In this document: one piece after another, positions 1 to 7,417 of the stretch
Numbering within the stretch: position 1 is the first letter of the stretch
How the letters are laid out: each line of letters opens with the position of its first letter
Origin: Okeania sp.
GTDB taxonomy: Bacteria > Cyanobacteriota > Cyanobacteriia > Cyanobacteriales > Microcoleaceae
Direction of reading: 5' to 3'
DNA length: 7,508 bases
NCBI RefSeq assembly: GCF_035285525.1
Contig: NZ_JAYKGW010000051.1
Location: 1-7,508, forward strand
Position numbers and translations under genes: made by a program
The notes under the pieces: model-generated
The model's database searches: none
What the model saw: the letters and a program-made list of their open reading frames with translations, nothing else
Told to the model about the DNA's origin: nothing

Positions 1-716
1 CTTATGATTTCATCATTCCTTGCTCTCACCAAATGGCAGATTGGTGTCACTCTATGGGAGTTCCAGAAGATAAGTTAGTAGTTGTTCCCAATGCCTGTGG
101 TTATCCAGTTGAAGATGAACTTGTGGAACAAATTCTGACTCGACGTTGGCAATTTCAGGATAGGAAAAAACTAAAAATCTTATTTCTTGGTAGATTTGCT
201 CGGCAAAAAGGTTTAGATCGTCTTTTAGCTGTTGTCACAGAGTCTCGCCGGAGAAAACTACCCATTCAGTGGCGTTTAGTAGGTAAGAATGTGCTAAAAG
301 ATGAAAATTCAGCTAATGAATTACAAACTATTACCGATCTAATTGAACCTCCAGCTTTAACTTCGGAAGCCATCAATGAAGTTTATGAATGGGCAGACGT
401 ATTACTGCTTCCTTCTTACTGGGAAGGTTTGCCCCTAACAGTTTTAGAAGCCATGCGTTTGGGAGTGGTTGTTTGTGCTTCCAATGTAGGTGCAATGGAG
501 GAAGTTGTGGATGATGGAGAAACTGGTTTTTTAATTCCTAATTTGAAGGGAGATGGATATGTAGAAGCCGTAATGAAAGTTCTCACCAAGTTAATTAACG
601 AACCAGAGGAGGTGAGAAAAATTAGTCAAACTGCTGCTATGGCTGCTGCACAACGTAATTGGAGTCAAGCTTGTGCTGGATTGATTGAAAAGTTGAATTT
701 GGTATTAAAAGCTTGA
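1..716 (+). CDS. Glycosyltransferase, GT1/GT4-type (Glycos_transf_1 domain), C-terminal portion; the 5' end lies outside the window
   Basis: The frame is open from nt 3 up to the listed ATG at 33 (YDFIIPCSHQ, no stop), so the gene is truncated by the window edge. It carries the hallmark GT-B C-terminal signature EGLPLTVLEAMRLGVVVCASNVGAMEEVVDDGETGF (nt 423-530, E-x7-E motif). Upstream are KLVVVPNA and KILFLGRFARQKG patterns typical of this family. Stop TGA at 714-716. Confidence 0.9.
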   Translation, partial: YDFIIPCSHQMADWCHSMGVPEDKLVVVPNACGYPVEDELVEQILTRRWQFQDRKKLKILFLGRFARQKGLDRLLAVVTESRRRKLPIQWRLVGKNVLKDENSANELQTITDLIEPPALTSEAINEVYEWADVLLLPSYWEGLPLTVLEAMRLGVVVCASNVGAMEEVVDDGETGFLIPNLKGDGYVEAVMKVLTKLINEPEEVRKISQTAAMAAAQRNWSQACAGLIEKLNLVLKA

Positions 717-762
717 GATTGTATGTTACAGGACTTACGCAAAGCAACCAATAAACCGGGTT

Positions 763-879
763 TACAGCGCTTTTCAAATGAATGAACCACATCGCCATCA
801 CCAATTTCTCGGGAACCGTAATTTAGTAGGGACGTTGCATGCAACTTCCCTACTGTGGTTTACTGATTTCACCGCTGTA
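763..879. mobile_element. Nested small hairpin element (113-bp body at 765-877) flanked by a duplicated TA
   Basis: Copy 3 of the host repeat reads GGGTT-TA-TTGCC (TA at 6761-6762). Copy 1 reads GGGTT-TA-[CAGCG...CGCTG]-TA-TTGCC (TA at 763-764 and 878-879). The body has 5-bp terminal inverted repeats CAGCG (765-769) and CGCTG (873-877). The arms share further blocks (AACCAC, AGTAGGGA) around a central palindrome. Confidence 0.5.
825..854. repeat. 30-nt near-perfect palindrome (core hairpin of the nested element)
   Basis: AGTAGGGA-CG-TTGCATGCAA-CT-TCCCTACT. The 8-bp outer arms are 825-832 and 847-854. The inner TTGCATGCAA (835-844) is self-complementary. There is one mismatch, 833 with 846. 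Confidence 0.85.
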
Positions 880-1004
880 TTGCCGTGATATTGTTGCTCA
901 AACCAGGAAACTTGGTTGATAAACCCGGTTTCTGCGTAAGTCCTAATTATGTAAAATTCAGATAATTATTATATTCTAGTCATTGCGACTGAAAGGAAGT
1001 GAAA

Positions 1005-1036
1005 GGAAGCAATCTCCTAACCCTGAGATTTCTTCC
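1005..1036 (-). terminator. Candidate intrinsic terminator for the 700-aa minus-strand gene
   Basis: The inverted repeat is GGAAGCAATCTC (1005-1016) and GAGATTTCTTCC (1025-1036), 11 of 12 pairs with an 8-nt loop. Read on the minus strand, the hairpin is followed at once by TTTCACTTCCTTTC, a U-rich tract. It lies 73-104 nt downstream of the stop at 1109-1111. An adjacent 15-bp palindrome CCTATCG-T-CGATAGG sits at 1035-1049. No free-energy calculation was done. Confidence 0.4.
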
Positions 1037-1108
1037 TATCGTCGATAGGGACAACTACTCTGAAAAGCTTATCCGAAAAAGTTTTTCTCTTATTTGTTAC
1101 TCCTCTAG

Positions 1109-3211
1109 CTACATAGAATCAAAAATTCTTTCTTGTAATTGTCTTTGCACATTACTCAGCATTGCCTGATTATACTCCAATATTGGATACATTTGTTTAT
1201 ACAAACTTTCCATTTCTTCATAGGATAAAGACGCAAGCTTTAAAATTTCTTGACAAACCATTTGAAACCTTTTAACAGGATCGATAACTTCATCATAGGA
1301 TTCGTCTACAAAATCGGAAAAAGTTTGAAAACCTAAATTTCTAAGATCCTTTAAAGTACCTGGTTGTCCAAGAACAAGGAAAGGATTTAAAGAAACAATA
1401 GATTTAATAGTTTTTTCTGTAAATCTGCGATTCCTTTTACCATCATCAAAATTACTTTCAGTAACGATATAAAAAAAAGAACTGCTAAACAATTCATCAT
1501 TGATTTTGAATACAAATTCACCTCTTTGAGCGTTGAATTCTTTTGTTTTATCTAGGTCTATTCTTAAAGGCAAAATACTATAAACTTCTTTGTATAGAGA
1601 ATCAACGTCGATATTTTTTGTAGTTACAGGTGAAATTAGATCGCGGATAAAATTAAGGTTTGGCTGCTCCTCAGGCATTAAATTAAAAGAAAAGTAACTA
1701 TCATCAAGTAAGCCTTCAGAATAAAAAAACATCGTTATTGCAATCCTGTGGATCCGGGGCATATTATTCAGACATAAAAACTTCTTTTGCCTTACTGAGT
1801 TAGGATTCCCTTTAACTTGAGAACTAAAAGAATTAAAATTCCAAAAATGGCTGTTGAATGGAAGAATATTTATCTCAGGTTGAGAATAATAATCTTTCGA
1901 GTGAGTTTTGAGGTAGATGGGTAAACAATTATTTTGTGATAAACAAACAAAAGAGTTATGAGTACACTCCAAGACTTGAGTGACTCGAGACATCATATTA
2001 AAGAACTCAGTGTGTTCCGGTATAGCACCCTCTCTACTAGAATCTAGGATAATTTTTGCATTGTTCTTAGAGAGTAAGTTTTTGAGAAAGTACGGAATCA
2101 GAAATAAAATTCTGTCCGCATCTACGAGCTGATGTGTAGGGTAGTTAGCACTTATCCAAAAACATAACACAGTTTTTATTTCTTTCTTCCACAGATTTGT
2201 CGGTAGTTTAGTGCCTAAATATTGACAATATCTACCAAAAATTCCCGTTATAATATTAACATTAATAAATATTATATTTTTGTCTTCTAAGTAATTAAAC
2301 ATTGGAAATTCACTTACTAATTCCATGAGAGCAAAAAAATCTTGCTTGGTAATAAAATCTGCAATCCATAGATAAAAGACTACATCAATATATCTACTAA
2401 TTAAATCCTTATTTTTTATTGTGGGTATAATAGGTATGACTGAGGCAACCTCTTTAATTGCCAAATCATGTTCTGCTTTGTTTCTGGCAAATCGAAATAA
2501 AAGAAAAGCTCTCTCTAATTTTTCTGCATTCTTATCAGTCTTTAGCTGATGAGCAGCACAGCTAAAGATAGTTTTCATCATCCGATCAAAATCACTTTTA
2601 CTCTGATGCCACTCACTAAACTTAGATACCTGTTCTGCATATCTAAATACTTCTTTTATTACGTCTACGTGTAATAATAATTTAATTTTTGGTAAAGTTA
2701 TATTGATATTTTCTTCAATAACTTTGCTCGCAGCAAAGTTATTTTCTCTTGTAGAAAGCTTGTTGGACTCAGACTTTAATATTTTGAGAAAATTTTCTAC
2801 TTCAAATATATCTTTATTTTCACTTTCATTTTCTCTCTTTTCTTGGAACTTATTTGAATTATCATCCTGAAATTTTAGTTTTCCCAATTTGCATAAAGCA
2901 TCAGTAAAATTTTCATCAATCTCCACTGCTTTTTGATAACAAATTAAAGCATTATCTAACTCACCACATTTCTCTAGCTCTTGCCCCAGATCGTACTGAA
3001 ACCAGGCAGAAGAGCTATTTAGTTCAACTGCTTTACGATAAGCGGTAATCGCTTCATTCAAATTACCCTTTTTCGACAAAGTAGTGCCTAAACCATGATA
3101 GTACCAAGCAAAATTTGGCATTTGCGCAATTCCTTGACGATACAGCACTACCGCTTGTTCTAGTTTACCTTCAGCAACGAGCTTACGCCCTTGTGTTAAA
3201 AAATAATTCAT
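1109..3211 (-). CDS. TPR-repeat protein fused to a large uncharacterised domain with a GT-B / GT10-like (fucosyltransferase-like) C-terminal motif pair; function unproven
   Basis: This is a 700-codon uninterrupted ORF. Residues 3-104 form three canonical 34-aa TPRs (YFLTQGRKLVAEGKLEQAVVLYRQGIAQMPNFAW, YYHGLGTTLSKKGNLNEAITAYRKAVELNSSSAW, FQYDLGQELEKCGELDNALICYQKAVEIDENFTD), followed by a capping helix. Residues 114-160 are a charged, N/E/K-rich linker. Residues 476-489 read KKFLCLNNMPRIHR (nt 1745-1786). Residues 579-640 read FFYIVTESNFDDGKRNRRFTEKTIKSIVSLNPFLVLGQPGTLKDLRNLGFQTF (TESN...FTEK at nt 1412-1462). These parallel, by eye, the GT10 pattern (hydrophobic)-SN-x-x-x-R ... F-E-N-S-x(n)-Y-x-TEK-x(n)-P-(I/V)-x-x-G. 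Residues 160-475 show no motif I recognise. Confidence 0.85.
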   Translation of the reverse strand: MNYFLTQGRKLVAEGKLEQAVVLYRQGIAQMPNFAWYYHGLGTTLSKKGNLNEAITAYRKAVELNSSSAWFQYDLGQELEKCGELDNALICYQKAVEIDENFTDALCKLGKLKFQDDNSNKFQEKRENESENKDIFEVENFLKILKSESNKLSTRENNFAASKVIEENINITLPKIKLLLHVDVIKEVFRYAEQVSKFSEWHQSKSDFDRMMKTIFSCAAHQLKTDKNAEKLERAFLLFRFARNKAEHDLAIKEVASVIPIIPTIKNKDLISRYIDVVFYLWIADFITKQDFFALMELVSEFPMFNYLEDKNIIFINVNIITGIFGRYCQYLGTKLPTNLWKKEIKTVLCFWISANYPTHQLVDADRILFLIPYFLKNLLSKNNAKIILDSSREGAIPEHTEFFNMMSRVTQVLECTHNSFVCLSQNNCLPIYLKTHSKDYYSQPEINILPFNSHFWNFNSFSSQVKGNPNSVRQKKFLCLNNMPRIHRIAITMFFYSEGLLDDSYFSFNLMPEEQPNLNFIRDLISPVTTKNIDVDSLYKEVYSILPLRIDLDKTKEFNAQRGEFVFKINDELFSSSFFYIVTESNFDDGKRNRRFTEKTIKSIVSLNPFLVLGQPGTLKDLRNLGFQTFSDFVDESYDEVIDPVKRFQMVCQEILKLASLSYEEMESLYKQMYPILEYNQAMLSNVQRQLQERIFDSM

Positions 3212-3484
3212 AATCTCACTCAGTAGGAAATTTTAAGGTTATTAAAATCTTGTTATCTGGTTTTGTTTCTTAATTTCTTGAGTAACTCAACCAAACTTAC
3301 GGTTGCTAATTTTTTGAAACACCGATGTTACACTAATGTCTAGTAATAATTTATAAATGGACACCTAAGTGGCTATAGTGGCCTCTCAAGCTTTAAATAT
3401 TACTTTAGGAAAATGGTTTAATCCTCAATTTTCAAAGCTTTTACTCATAAATTATGATAATGCAGTTTTGAAGTCAAACCTAAG

Positions 3485-3512
3485 AAATTTTATCATCATT
3501 ATGATAAAATTT
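3485..3512. promoter_or_regulatory. Perfect 12-bp inverted repeat (candidate operator) in the divergent intergenic region
   Basis: AAATTTTATCAT (3485-3496), then catt, then ATGATAAAATTT (3501-3512), with perfectly complementary arms. The 10-mer ATTATGATAA occurs twice, at 3451-3460 and 3498-3507. The first copy overlaps a second small palindrome, TCATAA-A-TTATGA (3445-3457). The palindrome is directly visible, but the regulatory role is an inference and the region is very AT-rich. Confidence 0.3.
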
Positions 3513-3576
3513 ATCCTACTGAAATAATTTCCTGAAGTTATTGCACAGTCAAAGTTTTGTATGTCCATGAAATCTT

Positions 3577-3604
3577 ACTTTTGACTTTTGATCTTTGACT
3601 TCGG
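3577..3604. repeat. Heptanucleotide tandem repeat, 4 units (ACTTTTG ACTTTTG ATCTTTG ACTTCGG)
   Basis: There are two perfect and two degenerate 7-bp units, read directly. The array generates two TTGACT hexamers 14 bp apart, at 3581-3586 and 3595-3600. Confidence 0.7.
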
Positions 3605-3624
3605 TAAAATGCTATGATTACAAT
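3581..3624 (+). promoter_or_regulatory. Two overlapping candidate sigma70-type promoters for the methyltransferase gene
   Basis: The first is TTGACT (3581-3586), N18, TAAAAT (3605-3610). The second is TTGACT (3595-3600), N18, TACAAT (3619-3624). They lie 27-70 nt upstream of the ATG at 3651. GGAG at 3631-3634 is a distant and weak SD candidate. Hexamer matches like these are common in AT-rich DNA. Confidence 0.3.
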
Positions 3625-3650
3625 CTAATTGGAGTATTGAAGAAAGTATA

Positions 3651-4442
3651 ATGAGAAATCAAATTAACACTAATTGGCAAAGTGAAAAAAATGATGAAAT
3701 TAATTTCTGGCGAAACCATATTGCTACAGGAGGTGGTAAATATCAAGAGGATTATAAAGCTCGATTTAATCCAGATTTACCTCTTCAAAATCATATTGCT
3801 CGATATATCAAAAAATCTGTTAAACCAGGTTCAACTGTTAAGATATTAGATGCTGGTTCTGGCCCTTATACAATACTAGGTAAGTGTTTAGCTGACTACA
3901 AATTAGAAATTACAGCCGTAGATGCCTTAGCAAATGAATATAATCAAATTTTGTCAGAATTTAATGTTATTCCTTTAGTAAAAACAGAGCTTTGTGATGT
4001 TGAAGGATTAATTAATTACTTTCCAGACAATTACTTTGACTGTGCTCATATACGAAATGCACTAGATCATTCTTACGATCCTTTATTAGGAATTTTACAG
4101 ATGATTGATGTGGTTAAACCAGGAGGATATGTTTTAATTGATACTTACATTAATGAAGGAGATGAAGGAAATTACCATGGTTTACATAGTTGGAATTTTT
4201 GTCCAAAGAACGATAAGTTTATCATCTGGAACCAGCAAGGTAAGTCTCTAGTAGTAAATGATTATATTCAAGGTGTTGGATACATTGAAGAAATGAAAGT
4301 CAACCAGGGAGCTAAAGCAAAGAAGAGACCTATGTTTATAGCTATTAAAAAAACAGAAAAAACAATATTTGAAAGTGCATCTAATTTTACTTTAAGAGCT
4401 TTGGAAGTATCTGATTCAAGCAATTTTCAAAAGGATCAATAA
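3651..4442 (+). CDS. Class I SAM-dependent methyltransferase (small-molecule or sugar O-/N-methyltransferase type)
   Basis: Motif I is VKILDAGSGPYT (nt 3837-3863 cover V63-G71). An acidic residue ends beta-2 (LEITAVDA). The post-II/III region is FDCAHIRNALDHSYDP...VVKPGGYVLI. There is no (D/N/S)PP(Y/F) or PCQ motif, so it is not a DNA methyltransferase. Stop TAA at 4440-4442. Confidence 0.85.
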   Translation: MRNQINTNWQSEKNDEINFWRNHIATGGGKYQEDYKARFNPDLPLQNHIARYIKKSVKPGSTVKILDAGSGPYTILGKCLADYKLEITAVDALANEYNQILSEFNVIPLVKTELCDVEGLINYFPDNYFDCAHIRNALDHSYDPLLGILQMIDVVKPGGYVLIDTYINEGDEGNYHGLHSWNFCPKNDKFIIWNQQGKSLVVNDYIQGVGYIEEMKVNQGAKAKKRPMFIAIKKTEKTIFESASNFTLRALEVSDSSNFQKDQ

Positions 4443-4466
4443 ATTATCTTTGAAGGATATATAGTC

Positions 4467-4494
4467 TTGACTAATTTGGTTAGGTACATATATA
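4467..4494 (+). promoter_or_regulatory. Candidate sigma70-type promoter for the first sulfotransferase gene
   Basis: TTGACT (4467-4472), N16, TATATA (4489-4494), about 100 nt upstream of the ATG at 4593. The -35 hexamer is part of the palindrome TAGTC-TT-GACTA (4462-4473), which is related to the TAGTCAAGACT repeat ends. Confidence 0.3.
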
Positions 4495-4592
4495 GATAGA
4501 TTTAGGAAAGAGAGACTAGGAAATAGAGAAAAATACTTGATTATTTCTATATAAAAATTGATTGATTTTTTTGTTATTGGAGATGTGTAGCC

Positions 4593-5531
4593 ATGAATAA
4601 ATCAAGAGATAAATCTTCTTCTTACTTTCTTCCTATACCTATCCTATATATAATTCTGATTTGTCTACTCATAAGAGTTTTTCAGAAAGCCCTAAGTAAA
4701 AGTTTATTGCAGTTTTTTTTAAGGAAGTCAATATTGTATTTATTTCCGCCCATAAACAAATGTATGAAAGAAATCGAAAAATTTTATCAGTGTATGTCTC
4801 AGAAGGAGTGTAATTACCACATTCATATTTCTGAACAAAACTCCTATATATACTTTGAAGTACCCAAAGTTGCTTGTACTACAGTAAAATCAACCTTGCA
4901 AGAACTTGAAGCTCTGACATTAGGTCAGAATTTACCATCAAAGGAAAGTTCAATAGTTCACAATAAGAAGCTTTCTCTACTACGATCGCCTTCAGACATT
5001 GGAATTGATAATTTTTTGGCGATGCTAAATAACAACAATGTGTTTAAGTTTTGCTTCGTAAGAAATCCTTATACAAGATTGCTTTCTGTATATCTTAACA
5101 AGATGAGTTGGCGTGAAGGGCAATTTTACAAGAAAATTGCTGAAATACTAGATATGTCAGTAAGTGAAAGAATTACATTTAAACAGTTTGTTATGGCAAT
5201 AAAAAATCAATCTCCTTTGGCGATGGATCCCCACTGGCGTGTACAGACATATCAAACATTTTATGGTTTAGTGGATTACAATTTTATCGGTCGCTTTGAA
5301 AACCTTAATCAAGATTTGAAAGTGGTTTTGAATAGGATAGAAAATTTTTCCGATCAGAAAAATAAATGTGCTGAAGCGATAGAAAAATTAAGTTTTATTC
5401 GTGGAGGCAAAAAAACTAATGCTGATTCAAAACTTAGAGATTTTTATGGCACTCAGGAGATTAGAGATTTAGTATTTTCTATATACAAAGAAGATTTTCA
5501 TAACTTTGATTACTCTGAATATTTAATTTGA
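4593..5531 (+). CDS. Sulfotransferase, Sulfotransfer_2 family (carbohydrate sulfotransferase-like), with a predicted N-terminal transmembrane anchor
   Basis: The 5'-PSB-like loop is FEVPKVACTTVKS (PKVACTTVKS at nt 4863-4892). The 3'-PB-like motif is FKFCFVRNPYTRLLSVY (FVRNPYTRLLSVY at nt 5055-5093). Family-typical DPHWRVQ and FIGRFENLNQDL follow. The SD GGAGA (4579-4583) lies 9 nt before the ATG at 4593. Residues 11-30 (YFLPIPILYIILICLLIRVF, nt 4623-4682) are a hydrophobic helix. Alternative internal starts at 4764 and 4794 have no SD. Confidence 0.85.
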   Translation: MNKSRDKSSSYFLPIPILYIILICLLIRVFQKALSKSLLQFFLRKSILYLFPPINKCMKEIEKFYQCMSQKECNYHIHISEQNSYIYFEVPKVACTTVKSTLQELEALTLGQNLPSKESSIVHNKKLSLLRSPSDIGIDNFLAMLNNNNVFKFCFVRNPYTRLLSVYLNKMSWREGQFYKKIAEILDMSVSERITFKQFVMAIKNQSPLAMDPHWRVQTYQTFYGLVDYNFIGRFENLNQDLKVVLNRIENFSDQKNKCAEAIEKLSFIRGGKKTNADSKLRDFYGTQEIRDLVFSIYKEDFHNFDYSEYLI

Positions 5532-5723
5532 AAATAGTCAAGACTTACACTAACAAGACTTACACGGGAGGAACCCGGTTTCTACGGTAAATCATTGTTT
5601 TTGACAGTAAACATCTAGGAGAAACCGGGTTTCAGGAGCCGCCTGCGTAAGTCCTAATTTTAGTAGATTGGGAATAATGCTTAAATCATGCGCCATAATA
5701 TAGCGGTACTGCGCAAGTCTTGA
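5532..5723. mobile_element. Composite nested repeat region (outer and inner inverted repeats of the AAGACTTAC / GTAAGTCCT family), copy 2
   Basis: The outer pair is TCAAGACTTACAC (5538-5550) and TGCGCAAGTCTTGA (5710-5723). CAAGACTTACAC is duplicated at 5539-5550 and 5554-5565. The first 16 bp, AAATAGTCAAGACTTA (5532-5547), are identical to 6720-6735. The region starts at the base right after the TGA stop at 5529-5531. Confidence 0.6.
5555..5655. repeat. About 100-nt long-hairpin MITE-like unit (inner element of copy 2)
   Basis: Stem 1 pairs 5555-5565 with 5645-5655 (9 of 11 pairs). Stem 2 pairs GGAACCCGGTTTCT (5570-5583) with AGAAACCGGGTTTC (5620-5633), giving 13 Watson-Crick pairs plus 1 G-U, around a 36-nt loop. 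The right end CTGCGTAAGTCCTAATT (5643-5659) is identical over 17 bp to 932-948. Confidence 0.65.
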
Positions 5724-5884
5724 TATACCAATCCTATGTGAGTTGTAATATTTGTGTGGCAAAAAAAAGTCACAATTCATGAGTGAGGAGCTATATTTTG
5801 TTAAAGGTTTTCAGCTTAAATTAACTATTATGAAATTTGTCACAACCAATGTAGGATTGCTATAGCTTATAAAAAGGAAGAGAT

Positions 5885-6712
5885 ATGTACAAAGATAAAC
5901 TCAAAGCACCAATCACACTAATTTCACATGGTAGATCGGGAACATCCTTACTACAAAATATTTTTGATGCTCACCCAGACATATCAGTAGCTGGAGAAAC
6001 AGCCGACTTAATATTCGGCACTTGGTATTCAATCTCTAAGATTAAGGGAATCGTTCCCGGTTTGTTTGATGAAAACGGAAAACTTGTTCCTTGGGAAGAG
6101 CGTGTTGCTCTGGGAGTACGTGCTGTTTTTGATCAAATTTTTAATCTTGATAGAAAATATTGGATGCAGAAACCAATTTCACAACCTTTTATAATGCAAT
6201 TTTTAAAGATGCAAGAAAAGAATGAAAAAGATTGGTTTAATGTTTATTGGTCTGTCTTAGACCAAGTCTTTCCAGAAGGCAAATTTATCACTATTCTCAG
6301 AGAACCACGGGATGTTGTTCTTTCTTCTAAGGAGTATTGGGGTCGGGATCACGCTAATGTATGGGGTAATATTGCGACAATGGCACGATGTATTGCACAT
6401 GAGTCATCAAAAGTCAATTATGCGGTTAGTTTTGATGAGTTAGTTCAAGAACCTGAGCCAACTCTAAAAAAGCTTTTTGCCCATATTGATGTTCCTTACA
6501 GTTCAGATGTTTTAGCTGCATTAGAACATATTTATGTTCCTGACCAAAAAAAGTGGAAACAGGATAAAAGTCTTTTTGAAGACAAAATTAAAAGGGGTTT
6601 TTCACGGCAAAAAGACTGGAAAGATTTGGATATGTCTATAGTAAAAACTGAAGATTTAGAGGCTATTGAAAAACTTTGGAATAAATTTGGTTATTCTTTA
6701 AATCTAAATTAG
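5885..6712 (+). CDS. PAPS-dependent sulfotransferase, Sulfotransfer_1/3-type (P-loop-like GRSGTS)
   Basis: The 5'-PSB loop is ISHGRSGTSLLQNIFDAHPDI (HGRSGTSLL at nt 5927-5953). The 3'-PB motif is ITILREPRDVVLSS (REPRDVVLSS at nt 6299-6328). A good SD, AAGGAAG (5874-5880), precedes the ATG at 5885. Stop TAG at 6710-6712. I could align no similarity to the neighbouring Sulfotransfer_2 gene. Confidence 0.85.
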   Translation: MYKDKLKAPITLISHGRSGTSLLQNIFDAHPDISVAGETADLIFGTWYSISKIKGIVPGLFDENGKLVPWEERVALGVRAVFDQIFNLDRKYWMQKPISQPFIMQFLKMQEKNEKDWFNVYWSVLDQVFPEGKFITILREPRDVVLSSKEYWGRDHANVWGNIATMARCIAHESSKVNYAVSFDELVQEPEPTLKKLFAHIDVPYSSDVLAALEHIYVPDQKKWKQDKSLFEDKIKRGFSRQKDWKDLDMSIVKTEDLEAIEKLWNKFGYSLNLN

Positions 6713-6719
6713 TTTTGAC

Positions 6720-6817
6720 AAATAGTCAAGACTTAAACAAAGCAACCAAGAAACAGGGTTTATTGCCGTGATATTGTGGCTAAAACCAAGAAATTTCCGT
6801 AAAGAAACCCGGTTTCT
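6720..6817. mobile_element. MITE-like dispersed repeat, copy 3 (short form lacking the nested insert and the right terminal GCGTAAGTCCT)
   Basis: 6728-6761 aligns to 730-763 at 29 of 34 positions. 6762-6817 aligns to 879-933. The 115 bp at 764-878 of copy 1 is absent here. It starts 7 nt after the TAG stop. Confidence 0.6.
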
Positions 6818-6834
6818 ATGAGAAACCGGATTTC
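6804..6834. terminator. Strong hairpin between convergent genes (possible bidirectional terminator or RNA-stabilising stem)
   Basis: GAAACCCGGTTTCT (6804-6817), loop ATG, AGAAACCGGATTTC (6821-6834), 13 of 14 pairs. There is no clear U-tract on the plus strand. On the minus strand it is followed by TTTACGGAAATTT, a weak tract. It sits between stop 6712 (+) and stop 6866 (-). Confidence 0.3.
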
Positions 6835-6843
6835 TGGGTTCCC

Positions 6844-6865: not shown

Positions 6866-7417
6866 TTAATATCCATCAGGACTAATAGTTGTACGATCGT
6901 ATTCTGCCATTGATAAATCAACTTGTCTAGCTCGAAACAAATTACACCATCCTAATTTAGCATTATCTAACTTTGCTTTTTCTAGGTTAGCTCCTCTTAA
7001 ATCTGCATATCTTAAATCTGTATCTCTTAAATCTGCATTATATAAATTTGCACCTTGTAAATTAACTCTAACTAAATTTGCACCTCGCAGATTAGCATTA
7101 CGCAAATTAGCTCTAGATAGATTTCCCTCTTGAATATTTGTATTTGATAAATTAGCTTTATAAAGTTTAATATCTCCCATTTCTGCCTCTCGTAAATTAC
7201 ATCCTTTAAGGTTAGCTTGATTTAAGTTGGCATAGGGTAAATAAGCTTTGGTTAAATTACAACCTTCTAAATTAATTCCTTCTAAATCAGCTTCAAATAA
7301 TTCAATATTACTTAAATCAATCCCAACAAATTCTCTTTGCCCCTCAGCATATTTCCATAGTAATTCCTCTGAACCCATTTTCTCCATTTTCGTATTTTTA
7401 AAGCTAATTGTTAGCAC
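6866..7417 (-). CDS. Pentapeptide-repeat protein (Rfr-type right-handed beta-helix), small and soluble
   Basis: About 26 consecutive A(D/N)LXX-type pentapeptides, for example ANLNQ ANLKG CNLRE ... ANLRN ANLRG ANLVR VNLQG ANLYN ADLRD TDLRY ADLRG ANLEK AKLDN AKLGW. The listed start at 7417 is a GTG. In-frame ATGs at 7387 (MEKMG) and 7378 are equally plausible, so the start is uncertain by up to 13 codons. Confidence 0.85.
   Translation of the reverse strand: MLTISFKNTKMEKMGSEELLWKYAEGQREFVGIDLSNIELFEADLEGINLEGCNLTKAYLPYANLNQANLKGCNLREAEMGDIKLYKANLSNTNIQEGNLSRANLRNANLRGANLVRVNLQGANLYNADLRDTDLRYADLRGANLEKAKLDNAKLGWCNLFRARQVDLSMAEYDRTTISPDGY
6994..7038. repeat. Three tandem 15-bp units inside the pentapeptide CDS
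   Basis: CTCTTAAATCTGCAT (6994-7008), ATCTTAAATCTGTAT (7009-7023) and CTCTTAAATCTGCAT (7024-7038). Units 1 and 3 are identical. They encode the DLRDT DLRYA DLRGA segment on the minus strand. Confidence 0.8.

Follow-up and report, generated by a model that had tools for sequence, protein, structure and literature searches.

Many cyanobacteria make sulfated polysaccharides, and to our knowledge the synechan pathway, encoded by the xss locus, is the only bacterial sulfated-polysaccharide pathway that has been dissected genetically. The xss locus of Synechocystis sp. PCC 6803 (pSYSM, sll5042-sll5060) combines glycosyltransferases (GTs) with two sulfotransferases of distinct subfamilies, both of the type that uses 3'-phosphoadenosine-5'-phosphosulfate (PAPS), and relies on Wzx/Wzy (Maeda et al. 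2021, PMC8205485). In cyanobacteria, genes of the sulfotransferase families PF00685, PF03567 and PF13469 are mostly found in putative, often partial clusters for extracellular polysaccharide (EPS) synthesis, and where the substrates of bacterial sulfotransferases are known, they are lipo-oligosaccharides and glycolipids (PMC8205485). Transfer of the synechan pathway has also been reported (PMC13125312). Here we analyse a stretch of DNA from Okeania sp. (the window) that corresponds to a complete contig of 7,508 bp, NZ_JAYKGW010000051.1; its gene content can be read only between its two ends. Exact look-ups of the window proteins elsewhere yielded only shorter Logan contigs of run SRR19514071 (L001, L002), a run of which the literature search found no mention. 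Five genes of this contig, two of which encode PAPS-type sulfotransferases, lead us to propose that it is a fragment of a cyanobacterial sulfated-glycan locus, with a sulfated extracellular or capsular polysaccharide as its most likely product. We put the probability of this proposal at about 60%.

The five genes were established from a map of the open reading frames (ORFs) and a Pfam scan of these ORFs against gathering cut-offs, to which an NCBIfam scan was added. They encode a GT4 domain, a protein with tetratricopeptide repeats (TPRs) that we call TPRX, a class I S-adenosylmethionine (SAM)-dependent methyltransferase (MT), a Sulfotransfer_2 protein (ST2) and a Sulfotransfer_3/1 protein (ST3) (Table 1). 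A sequence-only reading of the same DNA had made the same assignments, and the four that hidden Markov models (HMMs) can test, GT4, methyltransferase, Sulfotransfer_2 and Sulfotransfer_1/3, all score above threshold. The catalytic or cofactor-binding motifs that can be checked by eye are intact. No NCBIfam equivalog was found for any of the five proteins.

Like xss, the window combines GTs with two different PAPS-type sulfotransferases, and in both systems sulfation is presumed to be cytoplasmic and to occur before export. The two loci are not orthologous, however: ST3 and XssE share only 22% identity over 223 amino acids (aa; E = 4e-5), ST2 has no counterpart, and plasmid searches with the window proteins returned no match to pSYSM at E <= 1e-3. 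XssA and XssE both belong to PF13469/PF00685 (XssA also matches PF03567, marginally), whereas the window pairs PF03567 with PF13469. The surrounding genes differ as well, xss having eight single-domain GTs together with Wzx, Wzy, a polysaccharide co-polymerase (PCP) and the XssQRS regulators, whereas the window and the related loci described below encode multi-domain or TPR-fused soluble enzymes and DUF6212 proteins. Indeed, no Wzx, Wzy, PCP or XssQRS-type regulator was found in the window (the whole contig) or within +/-10 kb of the related loci. The earlier reading spoke of two unrelated sulfotransferase families. This wording goes too far, both window enzymes having the 5'-phosphosulfate-binding (5'-PSB) and 3'-phosphate-binding (3'-PB) motifs and XssA matching all three sulfotransferase Pfam models; two distinct sulfotransferases in one locus are also already found in xss. 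Judging from its gene content, the locus is a plausible variant of the known cyanobacterial sulfated-glycan loci, with a predicted product, and it contradicts nothing in current understanding.

Related loci were found via the contigs of the closest ST2 homologues (49-57% identity, every named one cyanobacterial) and through a metagenome scan with an ST3 alignment. Each recovered locus shows the same core order on one strand, a GT2+GT4 fusion (859-890 aa) followed by ST2 and then ST3, with gaps of 13-73 nt. The core is carried by a Xenococcaceae group (L006/L007/L016/L017), Elainella (L008/L009), Gomphosphaeria aponina (L010/L011) and L020, the named metagenome-assembled genomes (MAGs) being Xenococcaceae MO_188.B29, Elainella sp. 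Prado103 and Gomphosphaeria aponina SAG 52.96. By tblastn, the window proteins are 49-56% (ST2) and 58-71% (ST3) identical to their counterparts in these loci. Pairwise identities separate at least five divergent lineages: the window, the Xenococcaceae group (L006/L016/L017), Elainella, Gomphosphaeria and L020. A sixth lineage, L018, has an ST3 orthologue with upstream sequence too short to judge adjacency; wherever the upstream sequence suffices, ST3 orthologues lie directly downstream of ST2 orthologues. The recurrence of this adjacency in at least five divergent lineages argues that ST2 and ST3 form a conserved couple and are not juxtaposed by chance.

The left contig end cuts the GT gene. 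The remaining fragment matches PF00534 (Glycos_transf_1; E = 1.4e-27, 96.8 bits for a cut-off of 26.4) and PF13692 (E = 2e-25) with its EX7E motif (EGLPLTVLE, residue 141 of the fragment) intact; it is predicted to be the C-terminal domain of a GT4 enzyme (retaining, GT-B). By tblastn it is 58-66% identical to the last ~235 residues of the GT2+GT4 fusions of the related loci (62-66% for those in L006, L008, L010, L016, L017 and L020), which argues that the window GT is the tail of a bifunctional enzyme.

Both sulfotransferases have well-preserved cofactor sites. ST2 scores 92.2 bits with PF03567 (E = 7.6e-26, cut-off 22) and displays a 5'-PSB motif (EVPKVACTT), a 3'-PB motif (FVRNPYTRLLS) and a conserved DPHWR; PKVACTT and RNPYTRLLS are invariant among five orthologues. 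The database gene call (255 aa) and all orthologues (244-272 aa) correspond to a start at Met58, the ATG at 4764, of a longer 312-aa reading. This alternative, from an ATG at 4593 with a GGAG 10 nt upstream, would add 57 residues and a transmembrane-like hydrophobic segment (residues 7-35). No solved relative of ST2 was found. Some ST2 relatives are of double length (506-648 aa; P0122, P0123 and L006 12475-14421), apparently tandem or fused Sulfotransfer_2 domains, and they occur in the same kind of locus. ST3 matches PF13469 (E = 7e-17, 62.8 bits for a cut-off of 27) and PF00685 (E = 4e-6, 26.8 bits for a cut-off of 22), and carries a 5'-PSB motif (SHGRSGTSLL), a 3'-PB motif (ILREPRDVVLS) and a conserved AGETADLIF; its PAPS-binding motifs are invariant among four orthologues. 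Both enzymes would transfer sulfuryl groups to a carbohydrate acceptor.

Besides the core, the related loci hold further sulfotransferases of both types, GT4+sulfotransferase fusions and a polysaccharide pyruvyl transferase (PS_pyruv_trans), and almost all of the proteins they encode look soluble. TPR fusions are frequent partners: the related loci contain TPR+GT2, TPR+DUF6212 and TPR+Galactosyl_T (GT31-like) proteins, and a TPR+sulfotransferase protein is also known (L014/L015). The TPR fusion of the window, which had seemed odd when the sequence was read in isolation, is therefore in familiar company. The glycan context proposed in the same reading has held up: the related loci abound in GTs (GT2, GT4 and GT31) and sulfotransferases and include a polysaccharide pyruvyl transferase, in line with the published survey of EPS clusters (PMC8205485). 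A literature search returned no account of TPR plus sulfotransferase clusters in cyanobacteria.

In the three related loci that are fully visible (3/3), a DUF6212 protein of 660-804 aa, sometimes fused to TPRs, is encoded directly before the GT2+GT4 fusion. DUF6212 has no NCBIfam model, and no mention of it was found in the literature search. A candidate sulfate transporter beside the Gomphosphaeria locus was rejected, the only ATP-binding cassette (ABC) system there being PstSCAB. The module formed by DUF6212, the GT2+GT4 fusion, ST2 and ST3, which is uncharacterised, is the true family of the window core.

The window departs from this family between the GT and ST2. ST2 begins 13-34 nt after the GT fusion in the related loci, whereas ~4 kb separate the GT stop (716) from the ST2 start in the window. 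This interval holds TPRX and MT and is seen only in this contig. The five genes are thus not one conserved unit, and consist of a conserved core of three and two lineage-specific additions. The sequence-only reading had taken the five consecutive genes as one set: the conservation of the GT fusion, ST2 and ST3 and the linkage of MT to ST2 in one other lineage (see below) bear out part of this, but all five are never co-localised in the recovered related loci. Moreover, TPRX lies on the strand opposite to the others, which means that at least two transcription units are involved. The AT-rich spacer (GC 28.5%) between the divergent TPRX and MT genes presumably holds promoters for both; promoter-like hexamers at 3581-3624 did not exceed the expectation from shuffled sequences.

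In TPRX, Pfam TPR families match only the N-terminal repeats, and the other 575 residues have no Pfam or NCBIfam match. A word-indexed search with residues 346-700 yielded 164 matches, the best only 33% identical. None of the 164 homologues has a Pfam annotation over this region, and a Pfam-A scan of 74 aligned members was equally negative (0/74). A profile search of 1.84 billion representatives recovered 14,683 clusters (50% identity) at E <= 1e-3 and 6,743 with the threshold set at E <= 1e-30; tandem two-domain proteins are frequent among them. Searches of PDB sequences (with the single sequence and the profile), PHROGs and cultured phage genomes gave nothing, and a genome-contig scan with full-length TPRX returned a single TPR-only match, in a Chitinophagaceae MAG (L003).

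The fold of this orphan region could be predicted. An AlphaFold2 model of the family domain, built on the alignment, reached a predicted local distance difference test (pLDDT) score of 89.3 and a predicted template-modelling (pTM) score of 0.90. Almost all of the top 50 Foldseek matches in the PDB are GT-B glycosyltransferases or epimerases (best E = 2e-4); they include BshA, OtsA, SdgB, glycogen and starch synthases, PglA and, at rank 35, the Helicobacter pylori fucosyltransferase FucT, and the best are GT4/GT20/GT5 enzymes. These matches have low TM-scores (0.3-0.47), which is what one expects of a distant fold made of two domains that close to varying degrees. On the strength of this model we are confident that the C-terminus of TPRX adopts a GT-B fold. 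The fold vindicates the earlier suggestion that the protein is transferase-like, for which Pfam and NCBIfam give no support. A second model (residues 126-700) places a lower-confidence helical linker between the TPR and GT-B parts, and a fold search with it yielded no new information. Numbered within 341-700, the family-invariant residues are E259-K260 (TEK motif), G287, E297/Y299/D300 (ESYD motif) and N341; all invariant columns fall in the C-terminal domain, where GT-B enzymes bind the donor, and all are present in the window protein. The idea that TPRX is a relative of the DUF6212 partner in the related loci was discarded (HHalign probability about 0).

Members of the TPRX family carry, as fused domains, a GT2, a methyltransferase, a UDP-glucose/GDP-mannose dehydrogenase or an epimerase, and one is set among genes for a sugar dehydrogenase, a dehydratase, an aminotransferase, a radical-SAM protein and a carbamoyltransferase. 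These fusions and this neighbourhood support a role in nucleotide-sugar or glycan metabolism. In two members, P0053 and P0113, a C-terminal PF05175-type methyltransferase-like domain with an NPPH motif, unrelated to the window MT by BLAST, echoes the adjacency of GT-B and methyltransferase in the window. Fusion to TPRs is rare (2/38 long members), but it is seen again in P0009, from a Xenococcaceae MAG. Contigs of uncultivated aquatic phages commonly carry the family, which also occurs in cyanobacteria, other bacteria and giant viruses: seven IMG/VR contigs (L026-L032, 42-119 kb) encode members, and against BFVD the model matched 22 'uncultured Caudovirales phage' proteins and one Mimivirus protein (E to 1e-16, TM up to 0.73).

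TPRX was compared with the GT10 alpha-1,3/4-fucosyltransferases, represented by H. pylori FucT (PDB 2NZW, against which the FucT sequence was checked). Both have a GT-B fold, and HHalign pairs the TPRX motif IVTET...TEK...PFIvlG, in register but weakly (P = 0.003, probability 10%), with the donor motif of GT10, FEN...YVTEK...IPIYWG; a GT4 control alignment was out of register (P = 0.069). An Asn-x7-Arg after the first C-domain strand also resembles GT10, by reading of the sequences only. Unlike GT10, however, none of 74 TPRX members matches PF00852, the TPRX profile finds no GT10 chain in the PDB, 2NZW has only E = 0.034 in Foldseek, and the TPRX N-domain is unrelated. The GT10-like motif may be taken as a lead towards a GDP-sugar donor for TPRX, and implies no family membership.

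MT is a Methyltransf_11-type enzyme (PF08241, 31.7 bits for a cut-off of 21.2) with motif I, LDAGSGP, at residues 66-72. A test for sugar O-methyltransferases gave no FkbM-type (PF05050) match, and the best NCBIfam scores, UbiG/UbiE at 23-26 bits, are far below their cut-offs. The best homologues are 51-53% identical, none higher. One of them (51% identical) opens a trio of genes found in L014/L015, contigs of the cyanobacterial MAG GCA_029976255.1: next come a TPR-fused Sulfotransfer_1/3 protein (437 aa) and an ST2 homologue (50% identical), the whole lying between phoX and pdxJ. The trio looks like a portable cassette for methylation plus double sulfation, and the recurrence of MT with ST2-type and ST1/3-type enzymes argues that MT is functionally part of the sulfation genes.

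A combination of transferase, methyltransferase and sulfotransferase is also the logic by which the Nod-factor fucose is decorated in Sinorhizobium sp. NGR234 (NodZ/NoeI/NoeE), an analogy that the sequence-only reading had drawn. It fails at every level of family membership. The NoeE equivalog NF052394 scores 18 bits in the window against a cut-off of 500, neither window GT matches NodZ/GT23, and NoeI is of the FkbM type, whereas the window MT is a class I enzyme of the Methyltransf_11 type.

A mechanism may be proposed for the sulfated-glycan locus. The GT2+GT4 fusion would build or extend a sugar backbone at the cytoplasmic face, and ST2 and ST3 would sulfate two different positions or residues of it. 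PAPS exists only in the cytoplasm, so that sulfation has to precede export. In the Okeania lineage, TPRX would add one extra sugar, possibly from a GDP-sugar as its GT10-like E...TEK...G motif suggests, and MT would add a methyl group. The TPR module, a theme of many enzymes in the related loci, probably docks soluble enzymes onto a multi-enzyme assembly complex, and export would be carried out by machinery encoded elsewhere. A bolder proposal, which we hold only tentatively, is that TPRX represents a very large unannotated GT-B family, new at the CAZy level, and that the core is a minimal route made of a polymerase and two sulfotransferases, independent of Wzx/Wzy.

Several observations weigh against the polysaccharide proposal, and they lend weight to three other explanations. 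The Pfam scan of the window revealed no Wzx/Wzy, ABC exporter, Wza/Wzc, priming transferase or PAPS-synthesis gene, as the sequence-only reading had already remarked for most of these, and none was found within +/-10 kb of the related loci. The motif match of TPRX to GT10, as noted above, is weak. As neither the window nor the related 20-kb loci hold a polymerase or exporter, the product might be no polymer, and instead a sulfated, methylated glycolipid or small glycoside in the style of Nod factors or mycobacterial sulfoglycolipids. The known substrates of bacterial sulfotransferases, lipo-oligosaccharides and glycolipids, fit such a product (PMC8205485), and so does the L014/L015 trio, near which there is no glycosyltransferase, so that its acceptor need not come from adjacent GTs. 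We nevertheless regard a glycolipid or glycoside as quite improbable: large GTs of several domains are numerous in the related loci, which also encode a polysaccharide pyruvyl transferase, the tests for NoeE, NodZ and NoeI all fail, and no lipid- or acyl-handling genes are present. The acceptor might also be a protein, the TPRs recruiting substrates as in OGT or SPINDLY, the GTs glycosylating them and ST3 sulfating tyrosines. The nearest solved relatives of ST3 are indeed the protein-tyrosine sulfotransferases TPST1/2, weakly (E = 5e-4), TPRX combines TPRs with GT-B, and all encoded proteins look soluble and cytoplasmic. Yet the TPST likeness is confined to the PAPS-binding motifs, and TPRX shares TPR repeats with the GT41 enzymes OGT/SPINDLY but has no GT41 HMM match; its best structural matches are, as said, of other families, and HMW1C (GT41) appears only at rank 17 (E = 0.012). 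The scarcity of TPR fusions in the TPRX family also argues against protein substrates, and the pyruvyl transferase and GT arrays of the related loci point to a polysaccharide. Protein modification is, in our view, very improbable.

A different doubt concerns the unity of the five genes. The locus could be an accidental mosaic in which only the GT fusion, ST2 and ST3 are functional together, TPRX and MT having been dropped into the gap, perhaps via MITE-like repeats, and acting on other substrates. By tblastn, no related core locus contains a homologue of MT or of the TPRX C-terminal region, TPRX runs opposite to the rest of the cluster, and a MITE-like repeat marks the left edge of the insertion. 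For TPRX, no recurrence beside sulfation genes like that of MT was found; no sulfotransferase gene neighbours P0009, its closest TPR-fused homologue, or other members of the family. In the case of MT, a 52%-identical homologue (L012) sits among housekeeping genes (cytochrome oxidase, glycolysis). Against a mosaic, the linkage of MT and ST2 homologues recurs in L014/L015, the related sulfation loci typically encode glycan enzymes fused to TPRs, and MT, ST2 and ST3 are co-directional (+). We consider a mosaic unlikely, and retain the proposal of a sulfated-glycan locus in which TPRX and MT may modify the product of the core.

The coordinates of all features are collected in Table 1.

Table 1. 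Features of the window and of related loci. Positions refer to the window, or to the named locus where one is given; a point marks features for which no strand applies.
Feature	Position	Strand	Basis or remark
GT gene, 3' end (last 237 codons, frame of base 3)	1..716 (ORF 3..716)	+	Cut by left contig end
MITE-like small dispersed repeat, copy 1	729..948	.	Just after GT stop, left edge of insertion
TPRX, 700-aa TPR-fused putative glycosyltransferase	1109..3211	-	TPR HMMs; predicted GT-B fold
TPRX, predicted GT-B catalytic domain (about residues 305-700)	1109-2299	-	AlphaFold2 + Foldseek
TPRX, helical linker (about residues 126-304)	2300-2836	-	Lower-confidence model
TPRX, TPR repeats (residues 1-125)	2837-3211	-	Pfam TPR families, only here
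Divergent intergenic region TPRX/MT, 439 bp	3212..3650	.	ORF map
MT, 263-aa class I SAM-dependent methyltransferase	3651..4442	+	PF08241
ST2, 255-aa Sulfotransfer_2 PAPS-type sulfotransferase	4764..5531 (alternative start 4593)	+	PF03567
MITE-like repeat, copy 2	5541..5660	.	Enlarged ST2-ST3 gap
62-aa ORF	5592..5780	-	No family match; overlaps repeat copy 2
ST3, 275-aa Sulfotransfer_3/1 PAPS-type sulfotransferase	5885..6712	+	PF13469, PF00685
MITE-like repeat, copy 3	6720..6840	.	Downstream of ST3
DUF6212 genes of related loci	L006 5254-7323; L008 4716-7130; L010 5433-7415		Domain scan of related loci
MT/TPR-sulfotransferase/ST2 trio	L014 10001-13257; L015 1924-5180		Cyanobacterial MAG GCA_029976255.1, between phoX and pdxJ

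The three dispersed repeats resemble miniature inverted-repeat transposable elements (MITEs). In copy 1 the terminal inverted repeat is perfect over 12 bp (AGGACTTACGCA / TGCGTAAGTCCT), and an additional block of ~113 nt with a palindrome (825-854) is nested inside. These repeats explain why the intergenic gaps are enlarged compared with the orthologous loci. The 62-aa ORF, because it overlaps copy 2, looks spurious and is probably no gene. An Rfam search of the window gave no structured RNA match at E <= 1, and in a promoter scan promoter-like sites were not above shuffles and no convincing terminator was seen.

Downstream of ST3, the cluster is flanked by a pentapeptide-repeat gene at 6866-7417 (-) that matches PF00805 (E = 8e-61), falls short of the thresholds for the HetL and Alr5209 equivalog models and shows a 15-nt periodic repeat in its DNA (repeats 6994-7053); it has no counterpart beside ST3 in the related loci. 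The GC content at third codon positions (GC3) is 15-29% in every gene, this flanking one included. The cluster had been called an island, but this uniform composition gives no sign of foreign origin, and we rejected the idea; the differences in total GC between genes stem from codon positions 1 and 2, GC3 being uniformly low. A defence-system reading, prompted by a cross-match to the GT4-conflict Pfam family, was likewise rejected, PADLOC giving trivial TPR and methyltransferase matches only.

The finding is a prediction from a 7.5-kb contig. It brings to light a core made of a GT2+GT4 fusion, ST2 and ST3, usually accompanied by DUF6212, which is a compact and widely distributed module that is not orthologous to xss. 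This core is open to heterologous expression and might provide sulfotransferases of new specificity for the engineering of sulfated polysaccharides. TPRX, for its part, flags what the predicted fold suggests is a very large GT-B family, missed by current domain databases and common in aquatic phage genomes; the donor and acceptor of this family, once determined, would annotate thousands of proteins.

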